Assembly (NCBI GenBank): GCA_963829055.1 | Contig: CAWHHI010000016.1 | Coordinates: 352,001-416,000 of the forward strand | Reading direction: 5' to 3' | Length of the DNA stretch: 64,000 nucleotides | Origin: an uncultured Gemmatimonadaceae bacterium | GTDB lineage: Bacteria; Gemmatimonadota; Gemmatimonadetes; Gemmatimonadales; Gemmatimonadaceae | Shown here: positions 3,327 through 59,974 of the stretch, in pieces | Position numbering within the stretch: the first letter of the stretch is position 1 | Layout of the letters: the number at the start of each line of letters is the position of its first letter | Translations under genes and position numbers: made by a program | The notes under the pieces: model-generated | Databases searched by the model: none | What the model was told of the DNA's origin: nothing | Seen by the model: only the letters and a program-made list of their open reading frames with translations

Positions 3327-3340
3327 TCACTCGACATTCG

Positions 3341-4975
3341 TTAGGCGTCCGGAACGGTGTCGCGCTTTGGCGGCAGTGGCGAGGAGTCCGGTTTGCCTCG
3401 CCGGATTGTATCGCCCGGTGTCCACGCCTTGTGTCCCTGTGGCAACCACCCCGGTACGACCTCGGGCACTGCGTTCGCTCGCGGACGCCGCGGCGGCGTG
3501 GTGTTATTGGTCGTGGCAGGACTGTCAGCTGCCGCGCGGCGGTTTCGCGTTCGCTCTCGCGCTGTCCGCACTGGAGGAGAACGGCGGTTGACGCGGCGCC
3601 GGCGCCGCGGATCCGCGTGCCGTCTCGCCCGTTAACGTCGATCGTTGTCGACCGGCTGCGGCGTTCGTCCCCGCGGGTGTGGCACTCGCGAAGTAGGCGG
3701 CCGCGCCTAACGCGGCGGAGAGTGCGAGCACGATCGGTGGGATTGCGATCAACCACATTTCGCTGCGAGTGAACGCTCGGCGCCGTCTCGGGCCGCGGCG
3801 GAGCGGGCGACGTCAATGTCGGACGGGCCGGCGGGGCGCGGGACACCGCGGCAGGGCGCGATCTCGGCCGGTGGACTGCCCACTGCCTCCGCTGCCTGAC
3901 GTGCGGTCGGTGCGACGGACGGTTCTGTGCGACGCTCCTGCCCGCCGGTCGCGTCCGTCCCTACCGTCTCGGTCCGCCCCGCCTCGGTGACGGCCTGCGA
4001 ACGCGACGCCGGCTCCGGCGGTGCGCTGGTTGTCTTCACAGCGGTCGGCGCGATCGGCGACGCCGTGCTCGGTGGAGCGGCGGCGTGCGCCCGCGTGGCT
4101 GGAGGTACGACTGATCGCGCACGGCGCCCCTCGCGCATAACGCCTCCCGCCGGAACAGCCGCCGTGTCTGCGCGCAGGTCGAGCCCGGGTGGTGGCACGA
4201 GTATGGGACGCACACTGCGCGACGGTTCCGCGTCCTCGACGGTCGAGCGATTCCCACCGCACGCGCATCCGGCTGCAGCTGCGAGGTCGAGCAGCACGCG
4301 CGATCGGCTCGGTTGCCACAGCGCAGGGTCGACGCTCGCCACGTCCACGTCGCGCAGCAGTCGATCGACCGGCGCCCGCGCCAGAAACCGACGCGCCGGC
4401 AATCCTCCCGGCAGGGAACGATGACGACGCCACCGTTCTGCATCGGCGTCATCCATCTCCGCGGCGGCCGATGTATCGAGCGTTATGCCTTCGCGGTGCA
4501 GCGATGCAAAGAAGCCCGCTGGTGTGAAGCGCGCGTTGATGGACGCATCGTTCGCGCTCGGGCAGTCGCCGACGTAGGTGATCAGTAACGACTCGCCATA
4601 GACGAGGCGAAGGTATCGCGCGGCCGCAACGGGCGGAGCGGCGACGACGATCTTCCGGACCGGCTTGGCGGTCGCCGCCACCGCGAGGAGAGACGCGACG
4701 CGCGCGCACGTGCACGCGAGCACGACATCGTCAGGGCAGGACTCGAGCTCGGCCAGATATCGCTGTGCAACAAGCTCGTCGCCCCAACTCGGCGGGACGA
4801 CAATGTCGAATCCGGCGGCGGCGCAGGCACGTGACAGCTCCGCGGGGGGCGCTGGTCGCGCGGCCACCAGAGCGTCGTTACCGAGAATCACGGCAGCGCG
4901 CGAGTTCTTGCCGCGCCGCGGTGCGTCCCTACCGGCCAATTTGTTTGGTCGTTGCGCGCTCTCTGCTCCGTCCAC
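3341..4975 (-). CDS. Degenerate [FeFe]-hydrogenase large-subunit C-terminal-like domain + Pro/Ala/Thr linker + TM helix (split by about 2 frameshifts)
   Basis: ORF 3749-5128 has AGFDIVV, ACTCAR, PPVAAARYLR..YG..ITYVGDCP and DLAAAAGCACGG. The frame continues in ORFs 3525-3758 (TM WLIAIPPIVLALSAALGAAAYF) and 3341-3571. GTG 4975 has AGGA upstream. Confidence 0.55.
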
Positions 4976-5111
4976 GCCACCGGTCCTGTACAACGTCGGG
5001 CAAACTACTCGTCGGCTGCCGCTCGTGCCCGCAGACCAGTCACTGACGAGACGTGGGACTGCGAACACGACACTACGAATACGCGCAACTACGGCGGAAC
5101 CAAGCCGATGC

Positions 5112-5144
5112 AAAAAGGCGGCACGCATTTCTGCGCCCCGCCTT
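5112..5144 (-). terminator. Intrinsic terminator of the Rad52/DdrA-like gene
   Basis: Minus strand AAGGCGGGGCGCA-GAAA-TGCGTGCCGCCTTTTT. Confidence 0.75.
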
Positions 5145-5184: not shown

Positions 5185-6117
5185 TCAGAACGGCAGGTCG
5201 TCGAGCGACATCCCGAGCGGTGAAGAGTCCAGCGCATCGGACGTCGAGCGCGACTCCGCAGCCGCGGGTGCGCCTTCATTTGTCGCGGCAGATCCGCTCG
5301 CGCGAGGCGGCCAGACCACGCCGTCGCACGACCTATCGCGGCACTTGAAGTCCGGTGCCTTCGGATTCCGCTTGGAGAGGCGGTTGTCCCACATGCGTCC
5401 ACCGCACTTGGGGCACGACGGCGTCGACACTGGCTCGGCGACGGTTGCCTCGGTGGACGGCTCCGGCGCTTCTGTAGCCGTTGCCGCAGCAGTCGGACGG
5501 ACGCGCTTCGCTACGCCGGCACGCGCACGCGCTGGGGTGCTCGCGGCCTCTTCCTCATTTCCATTCGACGAAACGGCGCCGTTCGACGACACGGCCCTGT
5601 CCTCTGGCAGCGGCGCGCCGTTGGCTGGACCGAAGCGTCGCGCATAGACGACACCTGGATCTTCGAGCGGCTTGGCGTTGCGGCCGTCACCGTCCACCTG
5701 AACCCAGTTCTGCTCGTAGGCGTAGAGCTCGTGCGCGATGCCGAAGCGGACGGCGGCACGCTTGAACGCGTCCGTCGCTGCGGCTTTGTAGTCGCGGCCA
5801 GTCCCGACATCCTCACGGATGACGCCGAGAATTTGCAGACGCGCCTTGAACGAGCAGGCCGCGCCGTCGCCGCCATCATCCAGACCCGGAATGGGCGGGA
5901 GCAGCTCGAGCGTCAGATCCCACTCGCCCGGTACTACGGCGTCCAGGCGCTCACGCGCGGTGTTCGCCTCGATATACGCCACGAACCGCGCGAAATACTT
6001 GCCGTCGCGGGCGATGACTTTGCCGTCCTGCCGCCAATAGACGACCCCGTTAGGCAGTGGCTCGGCAAGGCGCGACCAGAATGTCGGCCTTTTCAGTGTG
6101 TGTGTCGTGTCTGGCAA
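5185..6117 (-). CDS. Rad52/Rad22-family (DdrA-like) ssDNA-annealing protein with C-terminal Zn ribbon and acidic tail
   Basis: AYIEANTARERLDAV..W..KARLQILGVIREDVG..KAAATDAFKRAAVRFGIAHELY; CPKC..C-x4-C; ends DDLPF. Confidence 0.85.
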   Translation of the reverse strand: MPDTTHTLKRPTFWSRLAEPLPNGVVYWRQDGKVIARDGKYFARFVAYIEANTARERLDAVVPGEWDLTLELLPPIPGLDDGGDGAACSFKARLQILGVIREDVGTGRDYKAAATDAFKRAAVRFGIAHELYAYEQNWVQVDGDGRNAKPLEDPGVVYARRFGPANGAPLPEDRAVSSNGAVSSNGNEEEAASTPARARAGVAKRVRPTAAATATEAPEPSTEATVAEPVSTPSCPKCGGRMWDNRLSKRNPKAPDFKCRDRSCDGVVWPPRASGSAATNEGAPAAAESRSTSDALDSSPLGMSLDDLPF

Positions 6118-6590: not shown

Positions 6591-6600
6591 GCCATTACCG

Positions 6601-6619
6601 ACAATCTGCTACAGAATGT
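6601..6619. promoter_or_regulatory. Candidate palindromic operator in AT-rich divergent promoter region
   Basis: ACAATCTG-CTA-CAGAATGT (7/8 inverted match). Confidence 0.45.
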
Positions 6620-6671
6620 AACGGTGTTTCGGGCTATATTCGGTATCTCAAATTATGGTTGCCTGCAACGA

Positions 6672-7235: not shown

Positions 7236-7353
7236 TCCGCAGCCGAGCCGGCTGTGACGCTGACGAGCTGAGCCTAACGCGGCATTCTGGTCTTTGGTAC
7301 GCGGCTGGCGCGCGTCGTGCACTTCGGGCGCGCCCCAGACAAAGAGGCGACCA

Positions 7354-8009: not shown

Positions 8010-9005
8010 ATGACCGACGTCGTCGCGCTCTGCGCCGAGCTGCTGTCCATTCAGTCGCCCACCGGCGGCGAAGGGAAGATCGTGGAATTCGTGTCGCGAC
8101 GCCTCGTGAGTCGCGGCTGGAACGTCACCGTGCAGGAGGTGACGCCCGGTCGTGGTAACATCTGGGCATCGCGCGGCGGAGGCGGAGTCACGCTTTCCAC
8201 GCATCTCGATACCGTTCCGCCGTATGTACCGCCGAAGATGGACGGTGACCGGCTGTACGGGCGCGGCGCCTGCGACGCCAAGGGAATCGCGGCCGCAATG
8301 CTTGCCGCCGCCGATCACCTCACCGATTCCGGCGAGGACCGCGTCGATCTCCTGCTTCTCGTTGGAGAGGAGAAGGGCTCCGACGGAGCACGGGCCGCGA
8401 ACCATCTCCCGGCAACGAGTCGATTCCTGATCAACGGTGAGCCGACAGAAAGCCGGCTCGCGAGCGGCGCCAAAGGATCGCTCCGCGTCACCGTGAAGAC
8501 GCGCGGTCGTGAAGCGCACTCGGCCTACCCGCAGCTCGGCCGGTCGGCGATCGAACCAATGCTCGAGCTGCTTCCGACCATCCGCTCCGTGTCGCTGCCG
8601 ACGGACGCCGTCCTTGGTGACACGACCGTGAACATCGGAACCATCCGCGGCGGCACCGAGGCGAACATCATTCCCGGTGAGTGCGAGGCCGAGCTGATGT
8701 TCCGACTCGTCGGCGATGTCGCACACGTGAAATCTCTCATCGAGAAGTGGGCCGGTGACCGGGCCGAGATCACGTACGGGTCGTACATCCCGGCGCAGCA
8801 TTTCCACGTCGTTCCGGGCTTCGACATCGCTCCGGTCGCGTACACCAGCGACATCCCGCTCCTTGGCCGTTGGGGAACCCCGCTGATGTTCGGGCCCGGC
8901 TCCATTCACGTCGCGCACACGCCTAACGAGCACATCGAGCTCAGGGAACTGCGTGACAGCGTCACCGTTTACGAGCGCCTGGTGCGCACGCTCCTCGCCG
9001 CATGA
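8010..9005 (+). CDS. M20 metallohydrolase (DapE/ArgE family)
   Basis: HLDTVPP, GRGACDAKG, GEE, GEPT, GPGSIHVAHTPNE; heads the DAP operon. Confidence 0.9.
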   Translation: MTDVVALCAELLSIQSPTGGEGKIVEFVSRRLVSRGWNVTVQEVTPGRGNIWASRGGGGVTLSTHLDTVPPYVPPKMDGDRLYGRGACDAKGIAAAMLAAADHLTDSGEDRVDLLLLVGEEKGSDGARAANHLPATSRFLINGEPTESRLASGAKGSLRVTVKTRGREAHSAYPQLGRSAIEPMLELLPTIRSVSLPTDAVLGDTTVNIGTIRGGTEANIIPGECEAELMFRLVGDVAHVKSLIEKWAGDRAEITYGSYIPAQHFHVVPGFDIAPVAYTSDIPLLGRWGTPLMFGPGSIHVAHTPNEHIELRELRDSVTVYERLVRTLLAA

Positions 9006-10081
9006 CGACCGAACGCACGCCTCCTGCCCGCCGAATTCCCGTCGCGATCCTCGGCGCCACTGGCGCGGTGGGACAGACGTTCATCCGCTGCCTGCGCGAC
9101 CACCCGTGGTTCGAGATCGCGGAGTTGGCCGCGTCGGAGCGCTCCGCGGGCAAGCCGTATCGCGAAGCCACGCGGTGGCTGGAAGGGCAACTACCGGACG
9201 CGCTCGCCGACCGTGTCGTATTGCCGTGCGACCCGGCCAAGCTCTCCGCGCCCATCGTGTTTTCGGCGCTCGACGCGGCAGCCGCCGGTGACCTCGAGCC
9301 GGCGTTCGCCCGATCCGGCGCGCTCGTGTTGAGCAACGCCAAGAACTTCCGCATGGATCCGGACGTACCGCTGGTGATCCCGGAGGTGAACGCCAGCCAT
9401 CTGGCGCTCCTCGAGACGCAGCGTCAATCGCGAGGCTGGTCGGGCGGCATCGTGACGAACGCGAATTGCGCCGCAACGGTCGCCACCGTGGCGCTGGCCC
9501 CGCTCCATGAGGCGTTTGGCGTTAGGCAGGTGTTCGCCGTAACCATGCAGGCGGTATCCGGCGCCGGATACCCCGGCGTGCCGTCCCTCGACATCCTCGG
9601 CAACGTCATCCCGTACATCGGAGAAGAGGAGCCGAAGATCGAGCGGGAGATGCCGAAGATGCTCGGCTGCGTGGAAGGCGGCGCTCTCGTGCCCGCTCCA
9701 ATGCGCGTCAGCGCTCACGCGAACCGCGTCGCGGTGGAGCATGGCCATACGGTCTGCATGTCGGTCAAGTTCGAACAGTCACCGTCGCCCGAAGACGCAC
9801 TGCGTGTGCTGTCCGAATGGCGCGGCGATCCGACGGTGCGAGGCCTGCCGAGCGCCCCTGAACGTGTGCTGCTCGTGACGGACGCGCCCGATCGCCCCCA
9901 ACCTCGCCGTGACGTCGGGACCGGCGCCGGCATGACGGTCGTCGTCGGACGCGTTCGGTCGGACCCGCAGTTGGATCTGAGGCTCGTCGCGTTAGGCCAC
10001 AACACGATACGCGGCGCCGCCGGCGGCTCTGTGCTCAACGCCGAGCTGCTGGTCGCCACCGGCGTGATCAGCCGGGCATGA
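9002..10081 (+). CDS. asd: Aspartate-semialdehyde dehydrogenase (archaeal/eukaryote-like subtype)
   Basis: GATGAVG, NANC, QAVSGAG, HNTIRGAAG. Confidence 0.97.
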   Translation: MTTERTPPARRIPVAILGATGAVGQTFIRCLRDHPWFEIAELAASERSAGKPYREATRWLEGQLPDALADRVVLPCDPAKLSAPIVFSALDAAAAGDLEPAFARSGALVLSNAKNFRMDPDVPLVIPEVNASHLALLETQRQSRGWSGGIVTNANCAATVATVALAPLHEAFGVRQVFAVTMQAVSGAGYPGVPSLDILGNVIPYIGEEEPKIEREMPKMLGCVEGGALVPAPMRVSAHANRVAVEHGHTVCMSVKFEQSPSPEDALRVLSEWRGDPTVRGLPSAPERVLLVTDAPDRPQPRRDVGTGAGMTVVVGRVRSDPQLDLRLVALGHNTIRGAAGGSVLNAELLVATGVISRA

Positions 10082-11435
10082 TCGTCGTCAAGTTCGGTGG
10101 CACGTCCGTCGGCGACGCGGCAGCCATCGAACGCGCGGCCGAGATCGTGCGCGGCCGGCTGGCTCGCCGTCCACTCGTCGTCGTGTCCGCGCTCGCGGGG
10201 ACCACCAACACGCTGCTCGCGATAGCGGAGCAGGCAGAGAAGGGTCAGCTCATCGGAGCGCTCCGCGGCGTCGAGGGACTTCGCGAGCGCCACCTGGCGG
10301 AGACGTCGCAGCTTCTCGGAGACAGCGGTATCGGAGCCGAGATCGGTGCCGACCTGAGCGCGATGTTCGATGAGCTCGCGAGCCTCGCGGAAGCGCTGTC
10401 CGTGCTCGGCCACATGACGCCGCGGAGTCTCGACGCAATCGCATCCATCGGCGAGCGTCTCTCGTCGCACCTCGTGGTCGCCGTCCTCTGTGAGCGCGGC
10501 GTGCCAGCGCAGCTCATCGACGCCGGTGACGTCATGATCACCGACGACCACTACACGCGCGCCGAGCCGCAACCGGAGCTGATCGCCGACGCGACGCAGC
10601 GAATCATTCGTCCGCTGCTGGCCGCCGGGACAACTCCCGTCGTCGGCGGCTTTGTCGGCGCGACAGCGGCCGGCATTACGACGACGTTAGGCCGCGGTGG
10701 CAGCGACTACAGTGCGGCCTTATTCGGTGCCGCGCTCCGCGCCGAGGCGATCGAGATCTGGACCGATGTGGACGGCATGCTCACGGCCGATCCGCGCGTC
10801 GTCGACGGCGCACGGCTGATCGAGCAGATCCGTTTCGACGAAGCGTCCGAGCTGGCGTCGTTCGGCGCCAAGGTCCTGCACCCGAGCACGATCGCGCCGG
10901 CCGTCCGCATCGGCATTCCAGTTTACATCTACAACTCGCGTCGCCCCGACGGGTGCGGGACGCGCATCACGTTCGACGCGCCGCGCCGGCCCGGTGAGCG
11001 CTATCGCGGGGAAGAAAGACGTGTCGCTGATCCGCATCCGCACGCCGCGGATGTTGCTCGCGCACGGATTCCTGCGGCGGATTTTCGAGATCTTCGACGA
11101 GAATCGCACGTCGGTCGACGTGGTCGCGACGTCCGAGGTCTCCGTCTCTATGACGATCGACGATGCCACTCACCTCGACGCGCTGCTCGGATCGCTCACC
11201 GCGCTCGGCGATGTTTCCGTCGAACGGAACCGTGGCATTGTCGCGTTGGTCGGCGCCGGACTCGGCGACAGTACCGCGACAATGGCGAGGGCGCTCGCGG
11301 CGCTCGACACGATCAAGGTGCACATGGTTTCACTCAGCTCGGGCGGGATCAATCTCACGCTCCTCGTCGACGGCGATCAGGTCCTCGACGCTATGCGACG
11401 GCTTCACACCGCGTTCTTCCCACCGAGCCCAATGA
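10078..11435 (+). CDS. lysC: Aspartate kinase (frameshift near 10990)
   Basis: KFGGTSV, TLGRGGSDY, GAKVLHP; ACT domains in ORF 10994. Confidence 0.93.
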
Positions 11436-13032: not shown

Positions 13033-13904
13033 CGGTGGTCACGAGCAACGCGCTCGCCGAGCGCATCGAGGCGATCGCGTCAACGCCGCAGGGCACCCCG
13101 TTGCCTAACGATACCGAGTCCGTCGTCTACGAGCTGCTCGGTGCGCTGGAGCGTGGCGAGTTGCGCGCGGCCGAGCGCGCCGCGGACGGGACGTGGAATG
13201 CGGTGCCCTGGGTCAAGCGAGGTATCCTGCTGGGATTTCGCGTTGGCCGCGTCGTAGCGATGCCCGAGGACGGAATCGACCACGGGCCAGACCAGCCCGC
13301 GGCATTCTTCGACAAGCACACGTTTCCGCCGCGGGCATTGACGTTGAAGGACAGCGTGCGTGTCGTACCCGGCGGCACATCCATCAGGCGTGGGACGTAC
13401 GTGGCGCCGGGCGTCGTGTGCATGCCGCCGGCCTACATCAACGTCGGCGCGTACGTGGGCGCGGGAACCATGATCGATTCGCACGCGCTTGTCGGGTCGT
13501 GCGCGCAGATTGGCGAACGCGTGCATCTGAGCGCCGCGGCGCAGATTGGCGGAGTGCTCGAGCCGGTGAACGCCGCGCCCGTCATCATCGAGAGTGACGC
13601 GATCGTCGGCGGGAATTGCGGCGTATACGAAGGAACGATCGTCAGGGCGCGCGCGGTCCTCGGGGCAGGAGTGGTGCTCACCCGCGGCACGCCAGTGTTC
13701 GACCTCGTGCGCGAGCGCGTGTATCGCGCTGAAGGCGGCCGACCACTCGAGATTCCCGAAGGAGCAGTGGTGGTGCCGGGCGCGCGGGCAGTGCGTGGCC
13801 AGTGGGCGGCAGCTGAAGGTCTCTCGTTGCAGACCCCACTGATCGTCAAGTACCGTGACGAGAAGACAGACCTGGCGACCGCGTTGGAGCAGTGGTTGCG
13901 ATGA
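13029..13904 (+). CDS. dapD: Tetrahydrodipicolinate N-succinyltransferase
   Basis: WVKRGILLGF, GSCAQIG, IGGVLEP hexapeptide repeats. Confidence 0.95.
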   Translation: MTVVTSNALAERIEAIASTPQGTPLPNDTESVVYELLGALERGELRAAERAADGTWNAVPWVKRGILLGFRVGRVVAMPEDGIDHGPDQPAAFFDKHTFPPRALTLKDSVRVVPGGTSIRRGTYVAPGVVCMPPAYINVGAYVGAGTMIDSHALVGSCAQIGERVHLSAAAQIGGVLEPVNAAPVIIESDAIVGGNCGVYEGTIVRARAVLGAGVVLTRGTPVFDLVRERVYRAEGGRPLEIPEGAVVVPGARAVRGQWAAAEGLSLQTPLIVKYRDEKTDLATALEQWLR

Positions 13905-15179
13905 CCTCCCATCCGGCCTCACTCGCGATCCGTGTACCGGGCGACAAGTCGATCTCGCACCGCGCCCTCATCTGTGCCGCGCTCGCGAGCGGCCGGTCGC
14001 GCATTCGCAACATACTGCCATCGGCCGACGTGCATTCGACGGCAGGAGTTCTGCGCGCGTTAGGCGTGACGATCCCGCCACTCGGGCACGACGTTCGTGT
14101 CGACGGGCGTGGTCTCGGTGCTCTCGAAGCCGCGAGCGAGCCGCTCGACTGCGGAAACAGCGGCACGACGGCGCGCCTCATGACCGGCGTGCTGAGCGGA
14201 CACCAGTTCGCGAGCCGCCTCATCGGCGATGCGAGTCTCAGCCGACGTCCGATGGCGCGTGTTGCTCGCCCGCTCGAGGCCATGGGCGCGCGCTTCACGT
14301 TCGAGGACGGGGATCATCTGCCGATGGTCGTGACTGGCGGACAATTGCGTTCGATCGACTGGCCGAGCCCGACGGCGAGCGCGCAGGTCAAGAGCGCGAT
14401 TCTCTTCGCGGGGCTCGTGGCGCGGCGTTCCTGTGTCCGTCACGGAGCCCATCCGCTCCCGCGACCATACCGAGCGCATGCTGGCGTCTCTTGGCGTCGA
14501 GATCCGTTCGTGTGGCGGTGAAGCGTCGCTCACGCCGGCGTCCGAGCTGCCTTCATTCCAGATCGACGTTCCGGCGGATCCATCGTCGGCGGCGTTCCTC
14601 GCCGCGCTCGCCGCGGCGGGAGGGGTAGGGAGCGGCACGCCCGTCGCGCTGACAGATGTCGCGTTGAATCCGACGAGGCTCGGGTTCTTTCGCACGCTGC
14701 GCGACATGGGCGCCGACGTGGAGTGGGAAGTAGAGCGCGAGGAGTGCGGCGAGCCGGTCGGCACCATCACGGTCACCGCGCGTGGGTTGCGCGCGGTGCG
14801 CGTGGCCGGCCAGGACGTTCCGGCGATGATCGATGAGCTGCCGCTTCTCGCGTGTCTGGCGACGCGCGCCGATGGCGAAACGGAGATCCGTGGCGCGAGC
14901 GAGCTCCGGGTCAAGGAAAGCGATCGGATTGCGGCGGTCGTCGCCAACCTTCGCGCCGTCGGCGCGGATGCGGACGAGCTTCCCGACGGGCTGCGCGTGC
15001 GCGGGCCGACGTTGTCGTTAGGCGGTCAGGTGCGGGCGCACGGGGATCACCGGCTGGCGATGGCGTTCGGTGTGCTTGGCGCGCTGTCTGGCGACGCGAT
15101 CGTTGTGGACGATCCCGACTGTGTCTCGGTCTCGTATCCGGGATTCTGGTCGGATCTGGCGCGACTGACGGATGAGTAA
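13901..15179 (+). CDS. aroA: EPSP synthase (frameshift near 14430)
   Basis: PGDKSISHR, GNSGTT, SAQVKSA, RDHTERML, ELRVKESDR, DHRLAMAF. Confidence 0.95.
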
Positions 15180-17964: not shown

Positions 17965-19514
17965 ATGACCATGCGAGAAAAGCTCGATCTGCTCGAACGG
18001 CGGCGCGCCGAATCCGAGCAGGGCGGAGGCGCTGAGCGCGTCAAGGCACAGCACGACAAGGGGAAGCTGTCGGCGCGCGAGCGACTCGACGTGCTGCTCG
18101 ACGAGGGGAGCTTTGTCGAGTTCGACCGCTTCGTGACCCACCGCTCGACCGACTTCGGCCTCGATCGGATCAAGACATACGGTGACGGCGTCGTGACCGG
18201 CTACGGCCGGATCGACGGCCGGCTCGTCTACGTCTTCTCCCAGGACTTCACCGTGTTCGGCGGGTCCCTCTCGGAGGCGTTTGCGGAGAAGATCTGCAAG
18301 GTGATGGACCTCGCGCTGCGGAATGGCGCGCCGATGATCGGGCTGAACGACTCGGGAGGCGCCCGCATCCAGGAAGGGGTCGTGTCGTTAGGTGGGTACG
18401 CCGACATCTTCCTCCGCAACACGTTGGCGTCCGGCGTGATTCCACAGATCTCCGCCGTGCTCGGCCCGTGTGCCGGTGGCGCGGTGTACTCGCCGGCGAT
18501 CACGGACTTCACGTACATGGTCCGGGGGACGTCGTACATGTTCGTCACCGGACCGAACGTCGTGAAGACGGTCACGCACGAAGACGTGACCATGGAGCAG
18601 CTCGGTGGCGCCGACACGCACGCCGGCACGTCAGGCGTCGCGCACTTCGCGCATGACTCGGAGCTGGCGTCGCTGCAGGCCATCCGTGAGCTGTTCCGCT
18701 ACGTGCCGTCGAACAACCTCGACGATCCACCGCGCGGGACCGGCCGGGATCCTCGCGATCGCCGCGAGGAGTCGCTCATCGACGTCGTGCCCGATAACGC
18801 GAACAAGCCGTACGACATGCACGAGGTCATCACGCGCATCGTCGACGACGGCGAGTTTTATGAAGTGCACGGTGCGTACGCAGGAAATATTCTGTGCGGC
18901 TTCGCGCACCTGGGCGGCTACAGCGTCGGGATCGTCGCGAATCAGCCGGCTGTGCTCGCGGGGGTGCTGGACATCAACGCATCGGTCAAGGCAGCGCGCT
19001 TCGTTCGGTTCTGTGATGCGTTCAACATCCCGATCGTCACGTTCGAGGACGTGCCAGGGTTTCTGCCCGGCGTTATGCAGGAGCACAACGGCATCATCCG
19101 ACACGGGGCGAAGCTGCTGTACGCGTACTGCGAGGCCACGGTGCCGAAGCTCACCGTCATCACGCGCAAGGCTTACGGCGGTGCGTATGACGTCATGAGC
19201 TCGAAGCACATTCGCGGCGACTTCAATGTCGCCTGGCCGACCGCCGAGATCGCGGTCATGGGCCCCAAGGGCGCCGTCGAGATTCTGTTTCGCCGCGAGA
19301 TCGCCGAGAGCGGCGACGGCGTGGCTGCGACTGATGCCAAGGTGCGCGAGTACTCCGAGAAGTTCGCGAACCCGTACGTCGCGGCGAGTCGCGGATACGT
19401 CGACGATATCATCGATCCGCGCGACACGCGGCCGCGCCTTATCGATGCGCTGAGCACGCTCGAGCGAAAGCGCGACCGCAATCCGCCAAAGAAGCACGGG
19501 AACATCCCGCTGTA

Positions 19515-19515: not shown

Positions 19516-21063
<1,548 letters not shown>

Positions 21064-27958: not shown

Positions 27959-27961
27959 CGC

Positions 27962-43768: not shown

Positions 43769-45549
43769 CCTAACGAGGTTCAACGACGCGGACGCACGGC
43801 GTCGGTCATACTCGCGGGAGCATTCGTGTTCCTCGCGTCGGCGTTCTTCCGCACGCAGATCCTCGAGCACGCCGCGTACACGCTGCAGTCGGAGACGAAC
43901 CGCCTGCGCGAAGTACCGCTGCCCGCGCCCCGGGCGATCATCTACGATCGGCACGGAGCCGTCATCGCGGAGAATCTGCCCGGCTACTCCGTCTCGATTC
44001 TCGCCAAGACGTCGGACTCGCTTCGCGTCGCGCTTCGTGGACTCGCGGGCGTCATCAACCTAACGCCAGAGCAGATCGAGGCCGCGGTCCGGCGTTTCAA
44101 GCAGGCGCCAAACCGGCCGACGACCGTGCTGGCGGATGCGAGCTTCGACGTCGTCTCGGTTCTCGAGGAGCATCGCGTCGACTACCCCGGTCTCATCATC
44201 CAGGCCGCGCCGAAGCGATACTACCCCGACAAGGAAGCAGTGGCGTCCTTCGTCGGATACACTGGCGAAATCACAGAATCCGAGCTGAACCAGCGTCCGT
44301 ACCGCGGCTACAAGTCGGGCCAGGAGGTCGGCAAGGCCGGACTCGAGCGGCAGTACGAGGCGCAGCTTCGCGGGAAGGAAGGCACACACTTCGTCGAGGT
44401 CGACGCGCGCGGACGCGTCGTCGGCGAGGCAGGCAGTGGGCGTGGCGACGTCGCGCCCGAGTCGCCAGACGCACTCTATACGAACATCGATCTCGATCTG
44501 CAGCGTTTTGCGGCCTCGTTGTTCGGCGACACGTTGCAGGGCGGCGTCATGGCGGTGGATCCGAAGACGGGGGAGGTGCTCGCGATCCATAGTGCGCCGA
44601 GCTTCGATCCGAATCGCTTCATTGGCGGCGTGTCGACTGAGTACTACTCGCAGCTTCGCGACGACCCACGTCGGCCGCTCTACAACAAGGTCATTCAAGG
44701 CCTCTACCCACCGGGATCGACGTTCAAGCTCGCGACGGCGATCATGGGGCTCGAGGCGGGCATCGTCGGGCTGGACGATCACATGCCGACGCCCTGCACG
44801 GGCGGGTACTTCTTCGGCAACCGCTACTTCCGTTGCTGGGACAAGAAAGGCCACGGCAACGTCAATCTGCGGCAGGCGATCGAGAAGTCCTGCGACGTCT
44901 ACTTCTATCAGCTCGGGCTGCGACTTGGCATCACGCGCATGCTCGCGGGCGGCGTGTCGCTCCGCATGAACGACAAGAGCGGCATCGACCTGCCTAACGA
45001 AAAACGGCCGCTCTGGCCATACGCCGCGGAATACTTCAACAAGCGCTACGGCCCCGGCGGCTGGAGCAACGGTGTGCTGCTGAGTCTCTCCATCGGGCAG
45101 GGCGAGAACTCACAGACCGTCGTCAACATGGCGAAGTTCTACACCGCGCTCGCCACGGATGGCTCGGTGGTGCGGCCGGAGATCGTGAAGCGGCAGACGG
45201 AGCGCACGAAGCTGTTCAAGCTGACGGCCGAGCAGATGGCGGGGCTGCAACAGGCGATGGCCGGCGTCGTGTCGTCGCGCGGCACCGCCGCGAGCGCGCA
45301 GATCCAGGGCGTCGTGATCGCGGGCAAGACCGGTACGGCGCAGAGCGGTGTCTTCCGCAACGGCATCGAGTTGAACCACGCCTGGTTCACCGGGCTACGC
45401 GCCCGCTGACGATCCCGAAGATCGTGGTCGTGGTGATGCTCGAGCAGGTGCCGTTTCACGGCACCGTCGCGGCGCTGATGGCGTCGAAGATGATCGAGCA
45501 TTACCTCAAGCGGCCGACTATTCAGGGCGCGCAGTTGGAGGGCGATTGA
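43757..45549 (+). CDS. mrdA: Penicillin-binding protein 2 (frameshifts near 45393 and 45414)
   Basis: PPGSTFK, SCD, KTGTAQ. Confidence 0.96.
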
Positions 45550-49183: not shown

Positions 49184-50503
49184 ATGTCTACAGGAGCATT
49201 GCCCGGGTTTCGCGATTTCTACCCCGCCGAGTTCGCCGAGCGATCGCACATCTTCGCCGCGTGGCGTGATGTCGCGCAGCGGTTCGCATTCGCCGAGTAC
49301 GATGGACCTCCGCTCGAGCCGCTCGATCTCTACACGAAGAAGAGTGGCGAGGAGATCGTCGGTCAGCTCTACAACTTCGAAGACAAGGGTGGTCGCCAGG
49401 TCGCACTGCGACCCGAGATGACGCCCACGGTTGCCCGCATGGTCGCCGCGCGCGCGAACGCGCTCCGTAGACCCGTGCGCTGGTTCTCGGTCCCACAGCT
49501 GTTTCGGTACGAGCGCCAGCAGAAGGGCCGACTGCGCGAGCACTTTCAGCTCAACGTCGACATCTTCGGCGAGCCCGATGTTTCGGCGGATGCCGAGCTG
49601 ATTGCGGTCGCCATCGAGATCATGCGCGCGCTTGGGCTCGGCCCGGACGCCGTGCGTGCGCGCGTGTCCGATCGACGACTGCTGAACGCGCTCCTGCTTG
49701 CGGCGGGCGTGACTGAATCGCAACTGCCCGCGACGTACGCCGTGATCGACAAGATCGAGCGGACGCCCCTCGCGCTGTCGCAACAGAAGTTGGCCGATGC
49801 CGGGCTCGCGGGCGACCTCCCTGCGACCATCACGTCGCTCGTGATCGAGGCGCGCTCGCTCGACGCACTGCGTAGCCGCTTTCCCGACGATGCCGCCGTG
49901 AACGAGCATGTCACGCGGTTCGAGCAATACTTCGCGGCGCTCGAGCAGCTCGGGGTCCGGGACTACGTGGATCTCGATCTTCGCATCGTACGCGGGCTCG
50001 CGTACTACACCGGCATCGTGTTCGAGCTGTTCGACGCGACCGGAGAGTTCCGCGCGATCTGCGGCGGTGGACGGTACGACAATCTGCTCCAGGCGTTAGG
50101 CGGCGTCGACATGCCGGCCCTGGGCTTCGGCATGGGCGACGTGGTGCTCGGTGAGCTGCTCCGGGCGCGAGACCTCATGCCCGCCGGCGCGCAGAAGATC
50201 GACTTCTGGGTTGCGCCCGTCACGGCGACGAACCGGCTGCACGCGGTCCGCGTCGCGACCGCGCTTCGCAATGCGGGCGCGTCCGCCGAGTATCCGTTGC
50301 GAGACCAGGCGTTGGGGAAGCAGCTCAAGGCCGCTGGCAATGCCGGGGCCGCGCGCGTCGTATTCGTCGGGCCCGAGCTGGAGGCACAAGGGCAGGTCGA
50401 GGTGAAGTCGCTCGTCGATGGAAACCAGCGAGCGCTGCCCCTCGATGAGCTCATTCGGCAGGTGCGCGATCACACCAGTGGTAGCTCGGATCGACCGCGG
50501 TAG
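49184..50503 (+). CDS. hisS: Histidine--tRNA ligase
   Basis: [31 protein letters not shown]. Confidence 0.98.
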
Positions 50504-50580: not shown

Positions 50581-52050
50581 ATGTCCGACGATAAAAAACT
50601 GACGACCCGCGCGGCCGACTTCAGCGCGTGGTACAACGAACTCGTACTCCGCGCGGAGCTTGCGGACTACTCGCCCGTGCGTGGCTGCATGGTCATCCGG
50701 CCTAACGGCTACGGCATCTGGGAGCGCATGCAGCGGGCCCTGGATGACAGGTTCAAGGCGACCGGCCACAAGAACGCGTACTTCCCGCTGTTCATTCCGG
50801 AGAGCTTTCTGCACAAGGAGGCCGAACACGTCGAAGGGTTCGCGCCCGAGGCCGCGGTGGTCACGCACGGCGGTGGAAAGAAGCTCGAGGAACCCCTCGT
50901 CGTGCGACCCACGTCCGAGACGATCATCTACTCGATGTACGCGAAGTGGGTGCAGAGCTATCGTGACCTGCCCATTCTGATCAATCAGTGGGCGAACGTC
51001 GTGCGATGGGAGATGCGCACGCGACTCTTTCTGCGCACGCTGGAGTTTCTGTGGCAGGAAGGGCACACCGCGCACGTCTCGCACGACGAAGCGCAGGAAG
51101 AGACGCTCAAGATCCTCCGCCTCTATCGTGATTTCATGGAGGGTTGGATGGGCATGCCCGTGATCACCGGGCAGAAGTCGGACGCCGAGCGCTTCGCGGG
51201 TGCGCTTCGCACGTATTCGTGCGAGGCGATGATGCAGGACAACAAGGCACTCCAGGCCGGGACGTCGCACAACCTTGGCCAGAACTTCTCGAAAGCGTTC
51301 GAGCTCTCGTTCCAGACGGAAACCGGCGGGCAGGAGTTCGCCTGGAATACGAGCTGGGGAGTGTCGACGCGGCTCATTGGTGGCCTCGTGATGACGCACG
51401 GCGACGACGCCGGTCTCGTGACCCCTCCCATGCTTGCCCCCACGGAGCTGGTCATCGTTCCGATCTACCGGAGCGACGAGGAGCGATCCAAGGTGCTGGA
51501 GGCGGCGGGACAGATCGAGCGCGATCTGGGTCGCGCCGACCGCCGGTACCACAATCCGATTCGCGTTCATGTCGACCGGCGCGACGGGATGAAACCCGGG
51601 GCGAAGTACTACGAGTGGGAGCTGCGCGGCATCCCGCTACGGATCGAGCTCGGTCCACGCGATCTCGACAAGGGGCAGGCGGTGCTCGTGCGACGCGACA
51701 CGAAGGAGAAGAAGCCCGTGTCGCTCGATACGTTAGGCACGGAGGTGGAGACACTCCTCGTGCGGATTCAGAACGACATGCTCGCGCGTGCGCGTGACCG
51801 CCGCGAGGCGAACAGCCTTCGTGGCGGAATTACGTACGATCGCTTCCGTGAAGTCATGCAAGGCGACGGCGCGTTCGTCTACGCCGGCTGGTGCGGCAGC
51901 GGCGCATGCGAGGCGCAGATCAAGGAAGACACGAAAGCAACCATTCGCGTCCTGCCGGACGAGGAGTTCCGATCGGCCGAAGCCCCGACGACGTGTTTGA
52001 AGTGTGGGCAATCCGCTACAGCCGAGGCATTGTGGGCGAAAGCGTACTGA
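50581..52050 (+). CDS. proS: Proline--tRNA ligase (archaeal/eukaryote-type)
   Basis: [34 protein letters not shown]-terminal Cys cluster, ends AKAY. Confidence 0.98.
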
Positions 52051-53326
52051 CCCGGCCGTTCGCCCGCGCGGACAGCGGTGCTCTCGCGTGTGAGGGAGTG
52101 CCGCTGTCCACGATCGCCGAGGCGGTCGGGACGCCGACGTATGTCTACAGCGCCAACGCCGTGCGCGATCAATACGCGCGTCTGGCGGCGGCGCTGAGCG
52201 GTGTTCCGTTCCGCATTCACTACAGCCTCAAAGCGAATTCGAATCGCGCACTGCTGTCACTGCTTCGTTCGTTAGGCTCGGCCGCCGACGTCGTGTCCGG
52301 TGGGGAGTTGTATCGCGCGCAGCGCGCCGGGTTTCCCGCGAGCGACATCATCTTCGGTGGCGTCGGGAAGACGGAGCAGGAGATTGCCGACGGCTTGGAC
52401 GCCGGCGTGCTGCTGCTGAACGTGGAGTCCGATGATGAGGTACGGATCGTCGACCGGCTGGCGCGCGAGCGAGGGATAGTCGCGCGGATCGCGCTTGCGC
52501 GTGAACCCGGAGATCACGGTCGAGACGCCACACTCCTACATCCGCACGGGCGAAAAGGGCCACAAGTTCGGAATCCCGTACGATGAGGTACGTGAGGTCG
52601 CGCGCCTGGCGGCGTCGCTGCCTAACGTCGTGCGTGCACGGGCTCGACATGCACGTCGGGTCGCAGCTATCGCGGCTCGATGCCTACCGACATGGCATCG
52701 AGCGTGTGCTGGAGTTGCTCGCGCAACTTCGCGCCGACGGCGCACGCGACCTTCGGTACCTCGACATCGGCGGGGGCCTGGCCGTCACGTATGACGCCGA
52801 GGAGCCGACGGACCTCGAGCAGTATGCGGAGATCGTGGTGCCGGCAGTGCGCTCGACGGGGCTACAGTTGATCGTCGAGCCAGGCCGGTTCATGGTCGGG
52901 AACGCGGGTGTGCTCATCAGTCGCGTGCTGTACCGAAAGCGCAGTGGCGGCAAGGAACTGCTGGTGGTCGACGCCGGCATGACCGACCTGCTTCGGCCGT
53001 CGCACTACAACGCGTACCATCGCATCGAAGCGGTGGAAACGATCGAGGGTCGGTCGCGCGTCGATGTCGTCGGGCCCGTGTGCGAGAGCGGTGACTTCCT
53101 CGCGCTGGACCGCGAGCTCGAAGATCTGCGGGCGAGCGATCTCATCGCGGTACATTCCGCGGGCGCGTACGGGTATGCGATGTCCTCGAACTACAACACG
53201 CGCGGTCGCCCAGCGGAAGTACTGGTCGACGGTGATCGCTTCGCGCTCGTCACGCAGCGAGAGAGTTACGAGCACCTGGTAGCGCCGGAGGTTCTCGAAC
53301 CCGAATGGAGGGGGAGGGTCGACTGA
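52032..53326 (+). CDS. lysA: Diaminopimelate decarboxylase (frameshifts near 52495 and 52630)
   Basis: [36 protein letters not shown]. Confidence 0.95.
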
Positions 53327-55386: not shown

Positions 55387-55390
55387 GATA

Positions 55391-57139: not shown

Positions 57140-57894
57140 TTCGTGACCGTGTGCTGGCGCTGCTGCGCCAGGTCGCGGACGGTCAGCTGGACATCACTGC
57201 GGCGCTCGATCGACTGAGTCAGGATCCGCTCGAGTCGTTGCCGTTCGCGACGATCGATCACCATCGCGCGCTCCGGCAGGGCTATCCCGAAGTGATTCTC
57301 GGGCAGGGGAAGACCACCGAGCAGGTCGTGGCGATCGCCGATCGAATTGCCGCACGAGGCGAAGGGTTCCTCGTCACACGCGCCACCGAGGACGCCCTCG
57401 CGTCTCTCCGCCAGCGCTTTCCCTCGGTCGACGTCAATGCGCTGGCGCGGTGCGCACACCTGGCTCCGCGTGAACCCGTGCCGATGGGCCGCGGGACCAT
57501 TCTGATTGTGACCGCCGGCACAAGCGATCTCCCCGTCGCCGAGGAGGCCGCGGTGACCGCGCGCGCGTTAGGCAACGCGGTAGAGCGACTCACCGACGTC
57601 GGCGTCGCGGGAATTCACCGCGTGCTCGCGGGCGCTGAAGCACTGACAAAGGCGGCGGTCGTGATCGTCGTCGCGGGCATGGACGGCGCGTTGCCGTCGG
57701 TCGTCGGCGGGCTCGTCGCGACGCCTGTCATCGCGGTGCCGACGAGCATCGGCTACGGGGCGAGCTTCGGTGGCGTTGCGGCGTTGCTGGCCGCGCTAAA
57801 CAGTTGCGCCGCAGGCGTAACGGTCGTCAACATTGACAACGGATTCGGTGCTGCCGTGGCAGCGTCCCGGATCACACACGCGTCGATCTCGTAG
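57136..57894 (+). CDS. larB: Nickel-pincer cofactor biosynthesis protein LarB (PurE-like)
   Basis: DHHRALRQGYPEV, AGTSDLPVAEEA, DVGVAGIHR, VVNIDNGFGA. Confidence 0.93.
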   Translation: MIRDRVLALLRQVADGQLDITAALDRLSQDPLESLPFATIDHHRALRQGYPEVILGQGKTTEQVVAIADRIAARGEGFLVTRATEDALASLRQRFPSVDVNALARCAHLAPREPVPMGRGTILIVTAGTSDLPVAEEAAVTARALGNAVERLTDVGVAGIHRVLAGAEALTKAAVVIVVAGMDGALPSVVGGLVATPVIAVPTSIGYGASFGGVAALLAALNSCAAGVTVVNIDNGFGAAVAASRITHASIS

Positions 57895-57915
57895 CTTCCC
57901 GCCAAAACCCCTCTC

Positions 57916-59974
57916 GTGGTCAAAACGCGGATCTGGGTCAATGTGGCCGCGATCTCCGCGTGGGTCCTCGCTCTGGCCGGCATGCTGGCGCTGGCATGGG
58001 GAGCACAGGCGCCCTCGTGGACATCCGGTGTCGCCGCCGCTGCGTCAGTCGCCGCAGTGACGTACGCGTGGCTGCTCATCAGCCAGCGTCTCGACCCGCC
58101 GCAACGAGAGTTCATCAAACAGTACCTCGCGCTCGCGCTCGCGCCTGTGACGTGGCTCGCCGCGGCGTCAGGCGGCCCCGGGTCTCCCGCCGTCGTCGCA
58201 TTGGCGCTTGGCGTCCGCGTCGTTGCCGGCGCCGAGAACATTCGGGCCGCGATATCGGTTGCCGCTGGGGCGCTGGTCGCACTCACGGCGATTCACTACT
58301 CGGTTGGCGGTGCGATCGCGTTCTCCAATGTGCTGAGCGGCGGCGTCATCTTCGCGGCGCTCGCGCTGTTCCCGGCGTGGCAGGTCCAACGCGCGCAGGA
58401 GAACGCGAAACGTCGTCGCCGGGCCACGCGGTCCGAGAGCGTGTTCGGCGGCGAACGTACCAACACGCCGCGCGGTCACGAGGCGATGCCGTCCGATCTG
58501 CGGCGCGGCGTCGAGGTCACGCGACAGGAAGCAGAGGAGCGTCGGCAGACCGAAGTCCTCAGCCGCTATCTGTGTGACGTCCGTGATGCGTTAGGCGCCG
58601 ACGAGGTGGTGTTCTGGCGCTGGACGGGCGGGCGCGACACGCTCGTTGCCGCCGCCTGTTCGGGAGAGGGGACAGAGACCGAGCCGACGAAGTTCAACCA
58701 CGCCGAGTGGCTTCCGCTCGTGAAGTGGTCGGCCGAGGAGCGGATCGTTCACTTCGATGACGGCAATCCGGGACCGCGAGTCGCGATGGGACCGGTGGCC
58801 GGGCTCAAGCGCGCGTTCGGCGCGCTCAGCATCTCGTCGGAAGCCGGGCCTCAAGCCGTCGAAAGACGAGCTCAAGACGTGGGTGCCGCGATACACGGCG
58901 CAGGTCGCCGTGCTCGCGGAACTGCTCGAGACGCGAGAAGAAGTTGGTCGGCAGAATCGCCGGACGCAGGCACTGTTGCGCGCGGCGCAGCAGTTCCAGT
59001 CGAACCGCACGATCGAGTCACTCGGCCGCTCGATCTGCGAGACCGCGCTGGAGGTGACGTCCGCCTCACGCGGGGCGCTCGTGCGCTGGCATCCGAACTC
59101 GAGCGACGGCGAGGTTCAGAGCGTTTCCGAGGGCCATCGGATCGCCGAGGGCTGGCCGATCAGCGAGGACTCGCAGGTCGGGACCATGTGCAAGAATGGT
59201 CTGCCGCAGGTGTGGGAGGACGCGCGCATGATCGCGCGTCACACGCGCATCTACGGCGCGTGGGAAACGCCTCGGCCCATCGGGTCGCTCGGGATCATTC
59301 CTCTCAAGCGCGAGGCTGGTGTCATTGGTGCGATTGTCATCGAAGGCGACGAGCCCGGAGACGTGCTGATCGCCGAGGTCCGTAACGTTCGACTGCTCGC
59401 GGCCATTGCTGCGGTCTCGCTCGAGACCATGTGGGAGATCGAGGAAGTCACTCGCCGCGCCCGTACGGACCAGCTGACGGGGCTCGCGAACCGCCGCCAT
59501 TTCGATGAGCAGATCACCCGAGTCCTCGCGGAAACGGATCGGTTCGGCGGTTCGGCGTCGCTAGTCGTGGCCGACATCGATTTCTTCAAAGCGGTCAACG
59601 ACACGTTCGGTCACGATGGCGGCGACGCAGTACTCCAGAGCGTCGCACAGACGTTCCAGGAAGGCGTACGGAACGTGGACACGTGCGCGCGCTATGGCGG
59701 TGAAGAGATCGCGGTGCTGTTGCCGCAGACGAGCATGGACGGCGCGCGCGACTTCGCGGAGCGGCTGCGCAAGGCGATCGAGTCGCGCGTGGTCATCCAC
59801 GCCGGGCGCGAGATGACGGTGACGGCGTCGTTTGGTGTCGCGACGTATCCGGATAGCGCGGCGGCGCATGATGCGCTGTTCCCGACGGCGGACCGGGCGC
59901 TCTACCAGGCGAAGGCCGAGGGGCGAAATCGGGTTCGGTGCGCGATTCCAGGCGTAGTGCAGAAAGCAACTTAG
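57916..59974 (+). CDS. Membrane-anchored GAF + GGDEF diguanylate cyclase (frameshift near 58848)
   Basis: N-terminal TM helices, GAF-like domains, DIDFFKAVNDTFGH, RNVD I-site, RYGGEEI. Confidence 0.92.

Follow-up and report, generated by a model that had tools for sequence, protein, structure and literature searches.

A hyper-abundant asymmetric octamer in a Gemmatimonadaceae genome: a possible uptake-sequence-like word identical to the core of integron attC sites

We analysed a 64-kb stretch of DNA (hereafter the window; positions 352001-416000 of contig C16) from the Gemmatimonadaceae metagenome-assembled genome G000 (7.78 Mb in 20 contigs, GC 66.6%, completeness 86%, contamination given as 3.95%), and found that a short asymmetric word, CGTTAGG, and its 8-mer form, CGTTAGGC, recur there and throughout the genome far above expectation. 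With a probability of roughly 45%, we read CGTTAGGC as a lineage-level self word, which would resemble DNA uptake sequences and would be kept by molecular drive linked to transformation. What we observe directly is how the word is distributed, overrides codon choice, is conserved, avoids its own copies at short range and is missing from foreign DNA, and that uptake genes exist; uptake as the process, and a pilin as the reader, are what we infer.

To our knowledge, only two families, each made up of host-associated Proteobacteria, have uptake sequences on record. Finding them a third time, among free-living soil bacteria, would be notable, the more so as this word is patchy in its family, is shared with another phylum and with phages, and equals an integron core. 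If the reading is true, it would tie natural transformation to integrons, two major routes of gene acquisition, and these bacteria would offer a natural system for how sequence drive rewrites thousands of codons. We found no literature on this word in bacteria (among the matches listed, the sequence occurs in primers only) and none on DNA uptake sequences in Gemmatimonad bacteria; on integrons of Gemmatimonadetes, the matches listed held only resistome and community studies. New here are the short-range repulsion, quantified with controls, the family-wide nulls for IntI and for an AddB-like gene, the finding that nearly all family genomes have ComEC and PilT, the recognition of word-free stretches as foreign, a pilin-allele lead, and the word-dense phage contigs and lineage outside the phylum.

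Abundance, form, spacing and conservation of the word

Counted on both strands, CGTTAGG occurs 41 times in the window, compared with 2.83±1.87 copies (maximum 9) in 100 dinucleotide-preserving shuffles, and CGTTAGGC occurs 28 times, compared with 0.94±1.02 (maximum 4). The initial annotation of the window, made from its letters, had also arrived at 28 exact 8-mers, while its expectation of 2-3 copies was slightly high; of the 45 coordinates it gave, 41 are exact CGTTAGG, and the other four (54067, 11749, 38364 and 56977) are GTTAGGC preceded by T or A. Its suggestion that the signal is genome-wide is right. G000 contains 7,392 copies of TTAGG, 7,103 of GTTAGG, 6,391 of CGTTAGG, 5,630 of GTTAGGC and 5,004 of CGTTAGGC, the last being the top over-represented 8-mer of the genome under Markov models of order 1, 2 and 3 (131, 102 and 258 copies expected, respectively). 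A ranking under the maximal-order Markov model did not single out CGTTAGGC; this ranking is blind to it, because its sub-words are equally enriched. CGTTAGG is present on all 20 contigs, at 0.64-1.09 per kb.

The motif is asymmetric and sharply limited to 8-10 bp. In a logo of the 7,103 GTTAGG copies, the information is confined to positions -2 to +7, [G/T] C GTTAGG C [G/A], with the outer C present in 90% of copies on the 5′ side and in 79% on the 3′ side. We could not detect further flanks or a partner half-site in this logo, and the word is therefore not a mobile repeat. The earlier description of one-mismatch neighbours as scarce is true of the core, since GTTAGC (356 copies) and GTTAAG (75 copies) are rare genome-wide; flank variants, however, are themselves enriched (CGTTAGGT 827, TGTTAGGC 435 and CGTTAGGG 428 copies). 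Every single-substitution neighbour of the word is present in G000, with none missing. Two single-mismatch variants are enriched as well, CGTTATGC 4.4-fold (583 copies) and CGTCAGGC 2.4-fold (1,763 copies).

The enrichment of outer-position pyrimidine variants (CGTTAGGT and TGTTAGGC) would suit a word that is the by-product of sequence-specific repair or modification, that is, of correction biased towards the word in the manner of HIP1 or of very-short-patch repair. HIP1 (highly iterated palindrome 1) is a hyper-abundant palindromic octamer of cyanobacteria, associated with a cognate methyltransferase, without a known function and conserved at orthologous positions, and the word recalls it in its own hyper-abundance and orthologous conservation; HIP1, however, is a palindrome, whereas the word is asymmetric. 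In addition, synonymous intermediates of the word show no enrichment in G000, standing at 0.65 (CGTTGGGC) and 0.39 (CGCTAGGC) of expectation, no match to the Vsr family was found in G000 (86% complete), and the indels of this error-prone assembly are not clearly clustered at the word. Mutational bias also predicts independent sites, not the depletion of close pairs to 0.29-0.79 described below. This explanation is weakened, and we regard it as quite improbable.

The word has no strand polarity. G000 carries 2,547 forward and 2,457 reverse copies of CGTTAGGC; in 50-kb bins, the forward share was 52.0% where the GC skew is positive and 49.2% where it is negative, as the initial annotation had anticipated from the window, and we found no link of word orientation to gene strand in G000. 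This bears on the idea of a Chi-like self tag that attenuates a helicase-nuclease, or of another defence that spares word-bearing DNA. Chi and KOPS (FtsK-orienting polar sequences) are over-represented asymmetric 8-mers like the word, and are read by DNA translocases, but both are strongly co-oriented with replication, the polarity of KOPS switching at ori and ter. Phage contigs dense in the word would fit such a tag, as would an AddAB-like helicase-nuclease pair at G000 C15:9001-16200 (L349), which is broken by frameshifts. We, however, did not find RecC or alpha-type AddB in G000 (86% complete), and the AddB-like gene does not follow the trait, as it occurs in only 5 of 121 Gemmatimonadaceae genomes, namely G000 and G004, rich in the word, and G009, G084 and G037, poor in it (thresholds below). 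The enrichment (~40-fold) and density of the word are also well above what we take to be the values of known Chi. A Chi-like role, weakened in this way, seems very unlikely.

Copies of the word repel each other within ~300 bp, an outcome of the spacing check that had been proposed initially. The mean gap between words in G000 is 1,201 nt, and the pair correlation climbs from 0.29 (0-100 bp) through 0.51 (100-200 bp) to 0.79 (200-300 bp), reaching ~1 past 300-400 bp; the short-range depletion is seen in all relative orientations. Among control 7-mers of similar count, 0 of 85 independent ones fell under 1.01, the sole exception being the word shifted by one base. An exclusion zone of this size would also suit a site of a cytoplasmic DNA-binding protein, serving nucleoid architecture or chromosome handling with one site per ~1-kb domain, and so would the sharply bounded, asymmetric motif of 8-10 bp without flanks or half-site, the conservation of the word at orthologous sites and its occurrence in phage genes. 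We found no candidate protein, however; per-site selection on thousands of sites would be costly, the identity of the word with the attC core would be left unexplained, and 79 of 121 family genomes lack the trait, which is therefore dispensable. We consider a binding protein unlikely.

Between species, the word is retained about twice as often as other 7-mers are. At orthologous sites in six congeners, 12/23, 11/20, 8/16, 6/11, 4/14 and 3/5 words were kept, a retention of 29-60% per congener (50-60% in five of the six), compared with 23-26% for all 7-mers, at ~81% nucleotide identity. About 45% of the window words are specific to G000. In most of these, two or three bases separate the word from the homologous sequence (for example, CTC GG to TTA GG); in the mreB copy, it is a single base.

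The window comes from an error-prone assembly, in which frameshifts break at least eight genes (aspartokinase, aroA, biotin carboxylase, rseP, pnp, lysA, guaA and others). Single bases at 30669, 34419 and 36942 are missing from contigs of four independent public runs, and the frameshifts are therefore assembly indel errors, not pseudogenes. Such an assembly might lead one to suspect that the word is a systematic miscall at a modified motif, that is, a long-read artefact, as the initial annotation had allowed. However, six other genomes of the genus, in assemblies of 260-1,170 contigs, carry 2,500-5,100 copies each, at orthologous positions identical to those in G000, and the contigs of two of them (G001 and G003) bear k141_ names, presumably the naming style of a short-read assembler. 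Furthermore, contigs from four runs of four studies cover window positions 22800-42799 at ~99% identity, and 0 of the 40 listed differences fall in a word, support that is partial, as 770 further differences are unlisted. The presence in G000 of every single-substitution neighbour argues in the same direction. The artefact is refuted as far as the data allow, and its probability is negligible. Frameshift-type indels were also tried as an indicator of base modification; 5 of 95 lay within 10 nt of a word, compared with a background of 1.6%, a result that is uninformative because those five are paired alignment gaps at divergent word sites.

The word is installed via rare codons and conservative amino-acid changes. 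Gene calls for G000 are crude and cover 74% of the genome, because frameshifts break genes, and the coding/intergenic split is thus approximate: 1,954 of 6,391 CGTTAGG lie outside called genes, which is roughly proportional. In confident genes, the word is read as TTA-GG (1,306 copies), CCT-AAC (979), CTA-ACG (628) and GTT-AGG (431). CCT AAC encodes 39.6% of Pro-Asn in G000, compared with ~7% expected from codon use, and TTA GGC, CTA ACG and GTT AGG make up 10% of Leu-Gly, 7.3% of Leu-Thr and 3.9% of Val-Arg, respectively. Likewise, 1,579 of 2,305 TTA codons are followed by GG, and 157 of 492 TAA stops stand within GCC TAA CG. In Frr, 16 relatives have A-V-R-H (10), A-I-R-H (5) or G-V-R-H (1), none of them with GTT AGG, which is found in G000 alone and leaves the peptide the same. 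UppS of G000 has A-L-G, compared with V-L-G in 9 of 12 relatives, the remaining three having M-, I- or F-L-G and no word; CdsA has Leu in G000 where other genera hold V, I or Y. The force therefore acts on DNA, as the initial annotation had argued, and is strong enough to change proteins.

The word is missing from stretches of foreign DNA. The three longest word-free stretches of G000 (31-50 kb; Table 1) lie at contig ends and encode ordinary housekeeping genes, among them a second ftsK, folD and DAHP (3-deoxy-D-arabino-heptulosonate 7-phosphate) synthase that share 47-59% identity with their resident counterparts. The stretches arose either as chimeric joins or through large recent imports, with chimeric joins or contamination the probable case. 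As for prophage markers, G000 gave no match to HK97 capsid or TerL_ATPase and no homologue of the phage contig L105. For practical purposes, the word offers a strong marker for binning, contamination checks and foreign DNA in these genomes.

Likeness to uptake sequences and candidates for a reader

We suggest that a surface receptor of the type IV pilus/ComEC uptake machinery would favour word-bearing DNA fragments, and that homologous recombination would then fix the word-bearing alleles. Copies would build up where the protein tolerates them, as synonymous rare codons or conservative replacements, and the build-up would end once a further copy within ~300 bp adds nothing, at ~1 copy per 1.2 kb. 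We rank this transformation-linked drive first because the anatomy of the word matches uptake sequences point for point: it shares with the DNA uptake sequence (DUS) and the uptake signal sequence (USS) its abundance, strand equality, in-gene frames with codon distortion, core conservation and the presence of competence genes. Among the functions proposed by the initial annotation, an uptake tag thus fits best, though not decisively; a nucleoid-protein site is possible, and a repair or modification target found no support, with no Vsr match in G000.

The DUS of Neisseriaceae, for which Neisseria has a ComP-type receptor, is likewise a short asymmetric word that lies in genes on both strands, is conserved in the core genome and is lacking where DNA was acquired recently. 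It differs in being 10-12 bp long, compared with 8 bp here, and in that our word is not used as an inverted-pair terminator, is found in ~29% of its family without dialects in three word-poor relatives, equals the attC core and is dense outside the phylum. The USS of Pasteurellaceae is a 9-bp core plus AT-rich flanks, whereas nothing is conserved past -2 to +7 here, and the host is high-GC. According to passages of one study, the mean distance between Neisseria DUS is ~1,150 nt (1,201 nt for our word), a second close DUS does not raise transformation, and new DUS differ from the homologous sequence by several bases (PMC2397512), the last two in line with the short-range repulsion and with the new copies seen here. 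Like the word, USS number thousands of copies and lie mostly in genes, in several frames. They shape codon and peptide usage (PMC2817400). A passage citing Karlin et al. notes the even spacing of USS (PMC1939737).

We surveyed 121 Gemmatimonadaceae genomes (including the unpublished G013 and G045, both word-poor), taking at least 100 copies per Mb as word-rich and fewer than 20 as word-poor. Word density is bimodal, with 35 rich genomes (maximum 1,327 per Mb), 7 intermediate and 79 poor, so that the survey of relatives that had been called for finds the word at high density in ~29% of the family. Genera are mostly uniform, the exception being g48 (974 versus 13 copies per Mb). Word-rich genera are scattered by RpsA and CdsA similarity, a crude proxy used without a tree, and are not the nearest kin of G000. 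Larger genomes tend to be denser in the word (Spearman 0.35, p = 1e-4); genomes of the window's genus are 5.7-7.8 Mb, compared with 2.5-5.9 Mb for nearly all others, and one other word-rich genus reaches 7.5 Mb. A second word in the word-poor G029 was considered as a dialect and ruled out, being tandem heptamer arrays. In G029:C4:100001-200000 (L067-L071), inverted pairs of tandem (GGTRAGA)n arrays stand ~100-500 bp apart every few kb; these arrays are a different repeat system.

Uptake genes are nearly universal in the family: ComEC occurs in 115 of 121 genomes, including 35 of 35 word-rich ones, and PilT in 121 of 121. Seven prepilin motifs were seen in G000. One of its pilins, encoded at C3:516829-517212 (128 aa), had as its best 15 non-congeneric matches, 67-78% identical, 14 word-rich genomes and G031 (54 copies per Mb), a member of a word-rich genus. 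The top scores included none of the 79 word-poor genomes, not even G011 and G107, whose CdsA is nearer to that of G000; CdsA similarity gave no such ranking, with 5 word-rich genomes in the top 16. Likewise, the top matches of a second pilin (C11:105390-105806) were word-rich in 8 of 8 cases. At the syntenic locus, the entire pilin gene aligns in G031, G070 and G076, whereas in G011 and G107 only the region of the pilin N-terminal helix aligns, plus a stretch downstream; the flanking gene is 74-75% identical in G011 and G107, compared with 66-74% in G031, G070 and G076. Overall, g1 and 13 of the 32 other word-rich genomes have the allele, compared with 0 of 79 word-poor genomes, kinship among the genomes not being factored in. 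The chance of the ten top genera all being word-rich (20 of 63 genera are) is ~1e-6, calculated by hand on the assumption of independence, which fails. Scans of the G000 pilins against solved structures and Pfam gave a generic N-terminal helix only and no ComP-like match.

A number of observations weigh against uptake-linked drive. ComEC and PilT are equally present in word-poor genomes, which make up 79 of the 121 in the family. Samples of 100 kb from each of the word-poor G008, G020 and G017 held no hyper-abundant word of their own, unlike the dialects of Neisseriaceae. Close inverted word pairs are depleted (0.24), and are not used as terminators. As to the pilin, 19 of 32 word-rich non-congeners, including the densest g9 (2/3), g48 and g54, have ordinary scores; overall, the score correlates weakly with word density, at a Spearman rho of 0.21 (0.38 at the genus level, 0.19 when adjusted for CdsA, p = 0.054), and in g48 the word-poor G106 is a better pilin match than the word-rich G058. 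The ten pilin-sharing genera may be one clade, in which case the association would be a single event; gene flow between word-sharing lineages would also yield the same pilin picture.

The word is, in addition, dense where uptake drive does not explain it, outside the phylum and in phage genes. The metagenome contig L266 carries 21 words on both strands in 20.3 kb (GC 0.585), and acs, lpxK and other housekeeping genes are encoded on it. No match to its LpxK in 201 Gemmatimonadota genomes exceeds 36% identity and, judged by sequence, L266 is from outside the phylum; its nearest protein-atlas clusters are mostly from Verrucomicrobiota, which we take as a lead only. Phage structural genes bear the word at host density or higher (L105, L216 and L082; Table 1). 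The identity of the word with the attC core is also not explained by the uptake model alone. Two further contigs were considered, of which L229 (GC 0.745) obtained no taxonomic placement, and the word-dense L300 (GC 0.47) was ruled out as a word-rich genome, being a cassette array.

The word and integron attC sites

The initial annotation had stated that the word matches no known motif, which is wrong. The R′ core of integron attC sites has a consensus of the GTTRRRY type and pairs with an inverse core within a foldable site of 60-140 nt; CGTTAGGC is identical to what we take to be this conserved R′ core; in cassette arrays of the same order, attC sites start with GCCTAAC and end with CGTTAGGC. 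Word-poor genomes of the order have few copies, clustered in strand-polar arrays with ~550 bp spacing. In the first 20 kb of G021:C95, there are 23 copies; when the first 14 were folded, in ~10 the terminal word paired, on the bottom strand, with an inverse core (GCCTAAC or GTCTAAC) lying ~100 nt upstream. Word arrays adjoin intI in G021:C80 and G019:C26. Strand-polar arrays with cassette-like spacing were also seen in the viral-filed contigs L135, L112, L077, L110, L089 and L125 (GC 0.30-0.66), and the metagenome contig L300 (GC 0.47) is such a cassette array with the same 8-mer; a wide range of hosts therefore has cassette arrays with this very 8-mer as the core. Rfam has no attC family, and a search of three array regions against it gave no match.

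An intI-like gene is also present in G000, at C20:208041-208958, with a score of 265.7 bits that narrowly exceeds the curated cut-off. Within C20:198000-209000, at least three foldable attC-like sites (205102, 205717 and 207189) lie on its 3′ side, together with further GCCTAACGC-type starts; the sites start with GCCTAACG and end with GTTAGCC or GTTAGGT. This layout is unlike the usual divergent arrangement of intI and cassettes. The 11 words that form a polar series on the right-hand side of the intI-like gene were considered as cassettes and rejected, as these are ordinary genes, 11 of 11 without an attC fold.

The reader of the dispersed words might, then, be an integron integrase or another tyrosine recombinase related to it, the words possibly being double-stranded secondary (attG-like) sites, decoys, or products of short-patch conversion templated by attC. 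The exact identity with the R′ end of attC, the folding arrays and their adjacency to intI, the occurrence of the 8-mer in arrays across a range of GC, and the word density of L266, easier to explain by a widely shared mobile reader, are all in its favour. We, however, found that 24 of the 35 word-rich genomes have IntI (E <= 1e-40), as do 54 of the 79 word-poor ones (Fisher p = 1.0), which is no dependence on the integrase, and we did not find IntI in the word-rich G002, G004 and G057. The ~7,100 dispersed copies in G000 form 143 attC-like pairs, compared with 115 in the reverse arrangement, a small excess: they have the attC core, but are solitary, without inverse-core partner or fold, sit in core genes and are non-polar. 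Thousands of good insertion sites in essential genes should also harm the host. In the part of a preprint that bears on this, integrases are able to use genomic sites as double-stranded DNA, which would support the idea, but the genomic insertion (attG) consensus is only GWT (bioRxiv 10.1101/2022.09.11.507474). We hold an integron-linked reader to be doubtful.

The attC identity, the contig from outside the phylum and the density in phages together suggest a reader that acts in cells or moves between lineages, and keep both an integron-linked or mobile reader and, with less weight, the cytoplasmic binder in play. An uptake-based variant, which we consider rather unlikely, would be a self tag tuned to the integron cassette end and read by a particular type IV pilin allele, with reader and word having spread between phyla. 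If that is true, natural transformation would preferentially import conspecific DNA and free gene cassettes.

Copies within the window

The frames of the 41 window copies (Table 1) were obtained by arithmetic from the starts of open reading frames (ORFs), plus a local check of GC at third codon positions. Sixteen are read as Leu-Gly, 11 as Pro-Asn, 6 as Leu-Thr and 4 as Val-Arg, one overlaps a stop, and 3 are intergenic or unclear. The readings given earlier for rpsI and pnp (TTA-GGC; 23514 and 34633), frr (GTT-AGG; 27024), mreB (CTA-ACG; 41433) and the uppS stop (GCC-TAA; 27953) are all correct.

Table 1. Word copies in the window (window coordinates), word-free stretches of G000 and word-dense phage contigs
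Feature	Position	Strand	Context and reading
CGTTAGGC	3339..3346	+	13 nt 3′ of tRNA gene; unclear whether coding
CGTTAGGC	3705..3712	-	ORF region without assignment
CGTTAGGC	6048..6055	+	Rad52/22-like gene (minus strand), CCT AAC Pro-Asn; frame by arithmetic
CGTTAGGC	7272..7279	-	intergenic
CGTTAGGC	8921..8928	-	M20 peptidase gene, CCT AAC Pro-Asn
CGTTAGGC	9520..9527	+	asd, GTT AGG Val-Arg
CGTTAGGC	9990..9997	+	asd, TTA GGC Leu-Gly, gene frame
CGTTAGGC	10685..10692	+	aspartokinase, TTA GGC
CGTTAGGC	13103..13110	-	dapD, CCT AAC
CGTTAGGC	14058..14065	+	split aroA, TTA GGC in best local frame
CGTTAGGC	15016..15023	+	aroA, TTA GGC
CGTTAGG(T)	18386..18392	+	carboxyltransferase gene, TTA GGT
CGTTAGG(G)	19796..19802	+	biotin carboxylase, GTT AGG
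CGTTAGG(T)	20182..20188	+	biotin carboxylase, TTA GGT
CGTTAGGC	23514..23521	+	rpsI, TTA GGC; kept in G001, G003, G005
CGTTAGGC	27024..27031	+	frr, GTT AGG; G000-specific; relatives spell Val-Arg GTC CGC, GTG CGG or similar
CGTTAGGC	27537..27544	+	uppS, GCG TTA GGC (A-L-G)
CGTTAGGC	27953..27960	-	overlaps uppS stop (GCC TAA CG); kept in 3/3 congeners
CGTTAGGC	28518..28525	+	cdsA, TTA GGC; Leu for V, I or Y of other genera
CGTTAGG	30267..30273	-	rseP, CCT AAC; kept in G001, G005
CGTTAGG	31217..31223	+	ORF131, GTT AGG; G000-specific
CGTTAGG	31834..31840	+	Ser/Thr kinase gene (minus strand), CCT AAC; frame by arithmetic
CGTTAGGC	34633..34640	+	pnp, TTA GGC; kept in 3/3 congeners
CGTTAGG	36611..36617	-	M16 peptidase gene, CCT AAC; G000-specific
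CGTTAGGC	37530..37537	-	ald, CTA ACG Leu-Thr
CGTTAGGC	38568..38575	-	dut, CCT AAC
CGTTAGG	39308..39314	+	polysaccharide deacetylase gene, TTA GGT; kept in 5/5 congeners
CGTTAGG	39567..39573	-	deacetylase gene end, CTA ACG
CGTTAGGC	39958..39965	+	geranylgeranyl reductase gene (minus strand), CTA ACG; G000-specific
CGTTAGG	40020..40026	+	geranylgeranyl reductase gene, CCT AAC
CGTTAGG	41433..41439	-	mreB, CTA ACG; congeners: CCTCACG in four, TCTCACG in one
CGTTAGG	43769..43775	-	PBP2, CCT AAC
CGTTAGG	44059..44065	-	PBP2, CTA ACG
CGTTAGGC	44992..44999	-	PBP2, CCT AAC; kept in 4/4 congeners
CGTTAGGC	50094..50101	+	hisS, TTA GGC; congeners CTC GG
CGTTAGGC	50700..50707	-	proS, CCT AAC; G000-specific
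CGTTAGGC	51731..51738	+	proS, TTA GGC; G000-specific
CGTTAGGC	52270..52277	+	lysA, TTA GGC; G000-specific
CGTTAGGC	52620..52627	-	lysA, CTA ACG
CGTTAGGC	57566..57573	+	AIR-carboxylase-like gene, TTA GGC
CGTTAGGC	58589..58596	+	unassigned ORF 5′ of GGDEF gene, TTA GGC
Word-free stretch	G000 C6:5440-55038		49.6 kb; GC 0.70
Word-free stretch	G000 C11:1-44055		44.1 kb; GC 0.664, genome average
Word-free stretch	G000 C6:591808-623330		31.5 kb; GC 0.73
Phage contig L105		both	19 words in 15.2 kb; terminase, portal, major head protein
Phage contig L216		both	15 words in 7.1 kb; virion proteins
Phage contig L082		both	4 words in 4.5 kb; tape measure and tail proteins

Split genes of the window lie at 10078-12142, 13855-15179, 19515-21990, 29661-31140, 33554-35918, 51891-53326 and 53739-55391. 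Two tRNA genes (3013-3085 and 3243-3326) are followed by the Rad52/22-like gene (5185-6117) and a helix-turn-helix gene (6402-7235), a group that is possibly the remnant of an integrated element; word density in this region is normal. A tmRNA gene is found at 60052-60412. Two intergenic stretches, at ~46850-46930 and ~55397-55511, have dozens of matches on both strands in G001, G002, G004, G005 and G006, and look like dispersed palindromic repeats, similar to miniature inverted-repeat transposable elements (MITEs) or repetitive extragenic palindromes (REPs).

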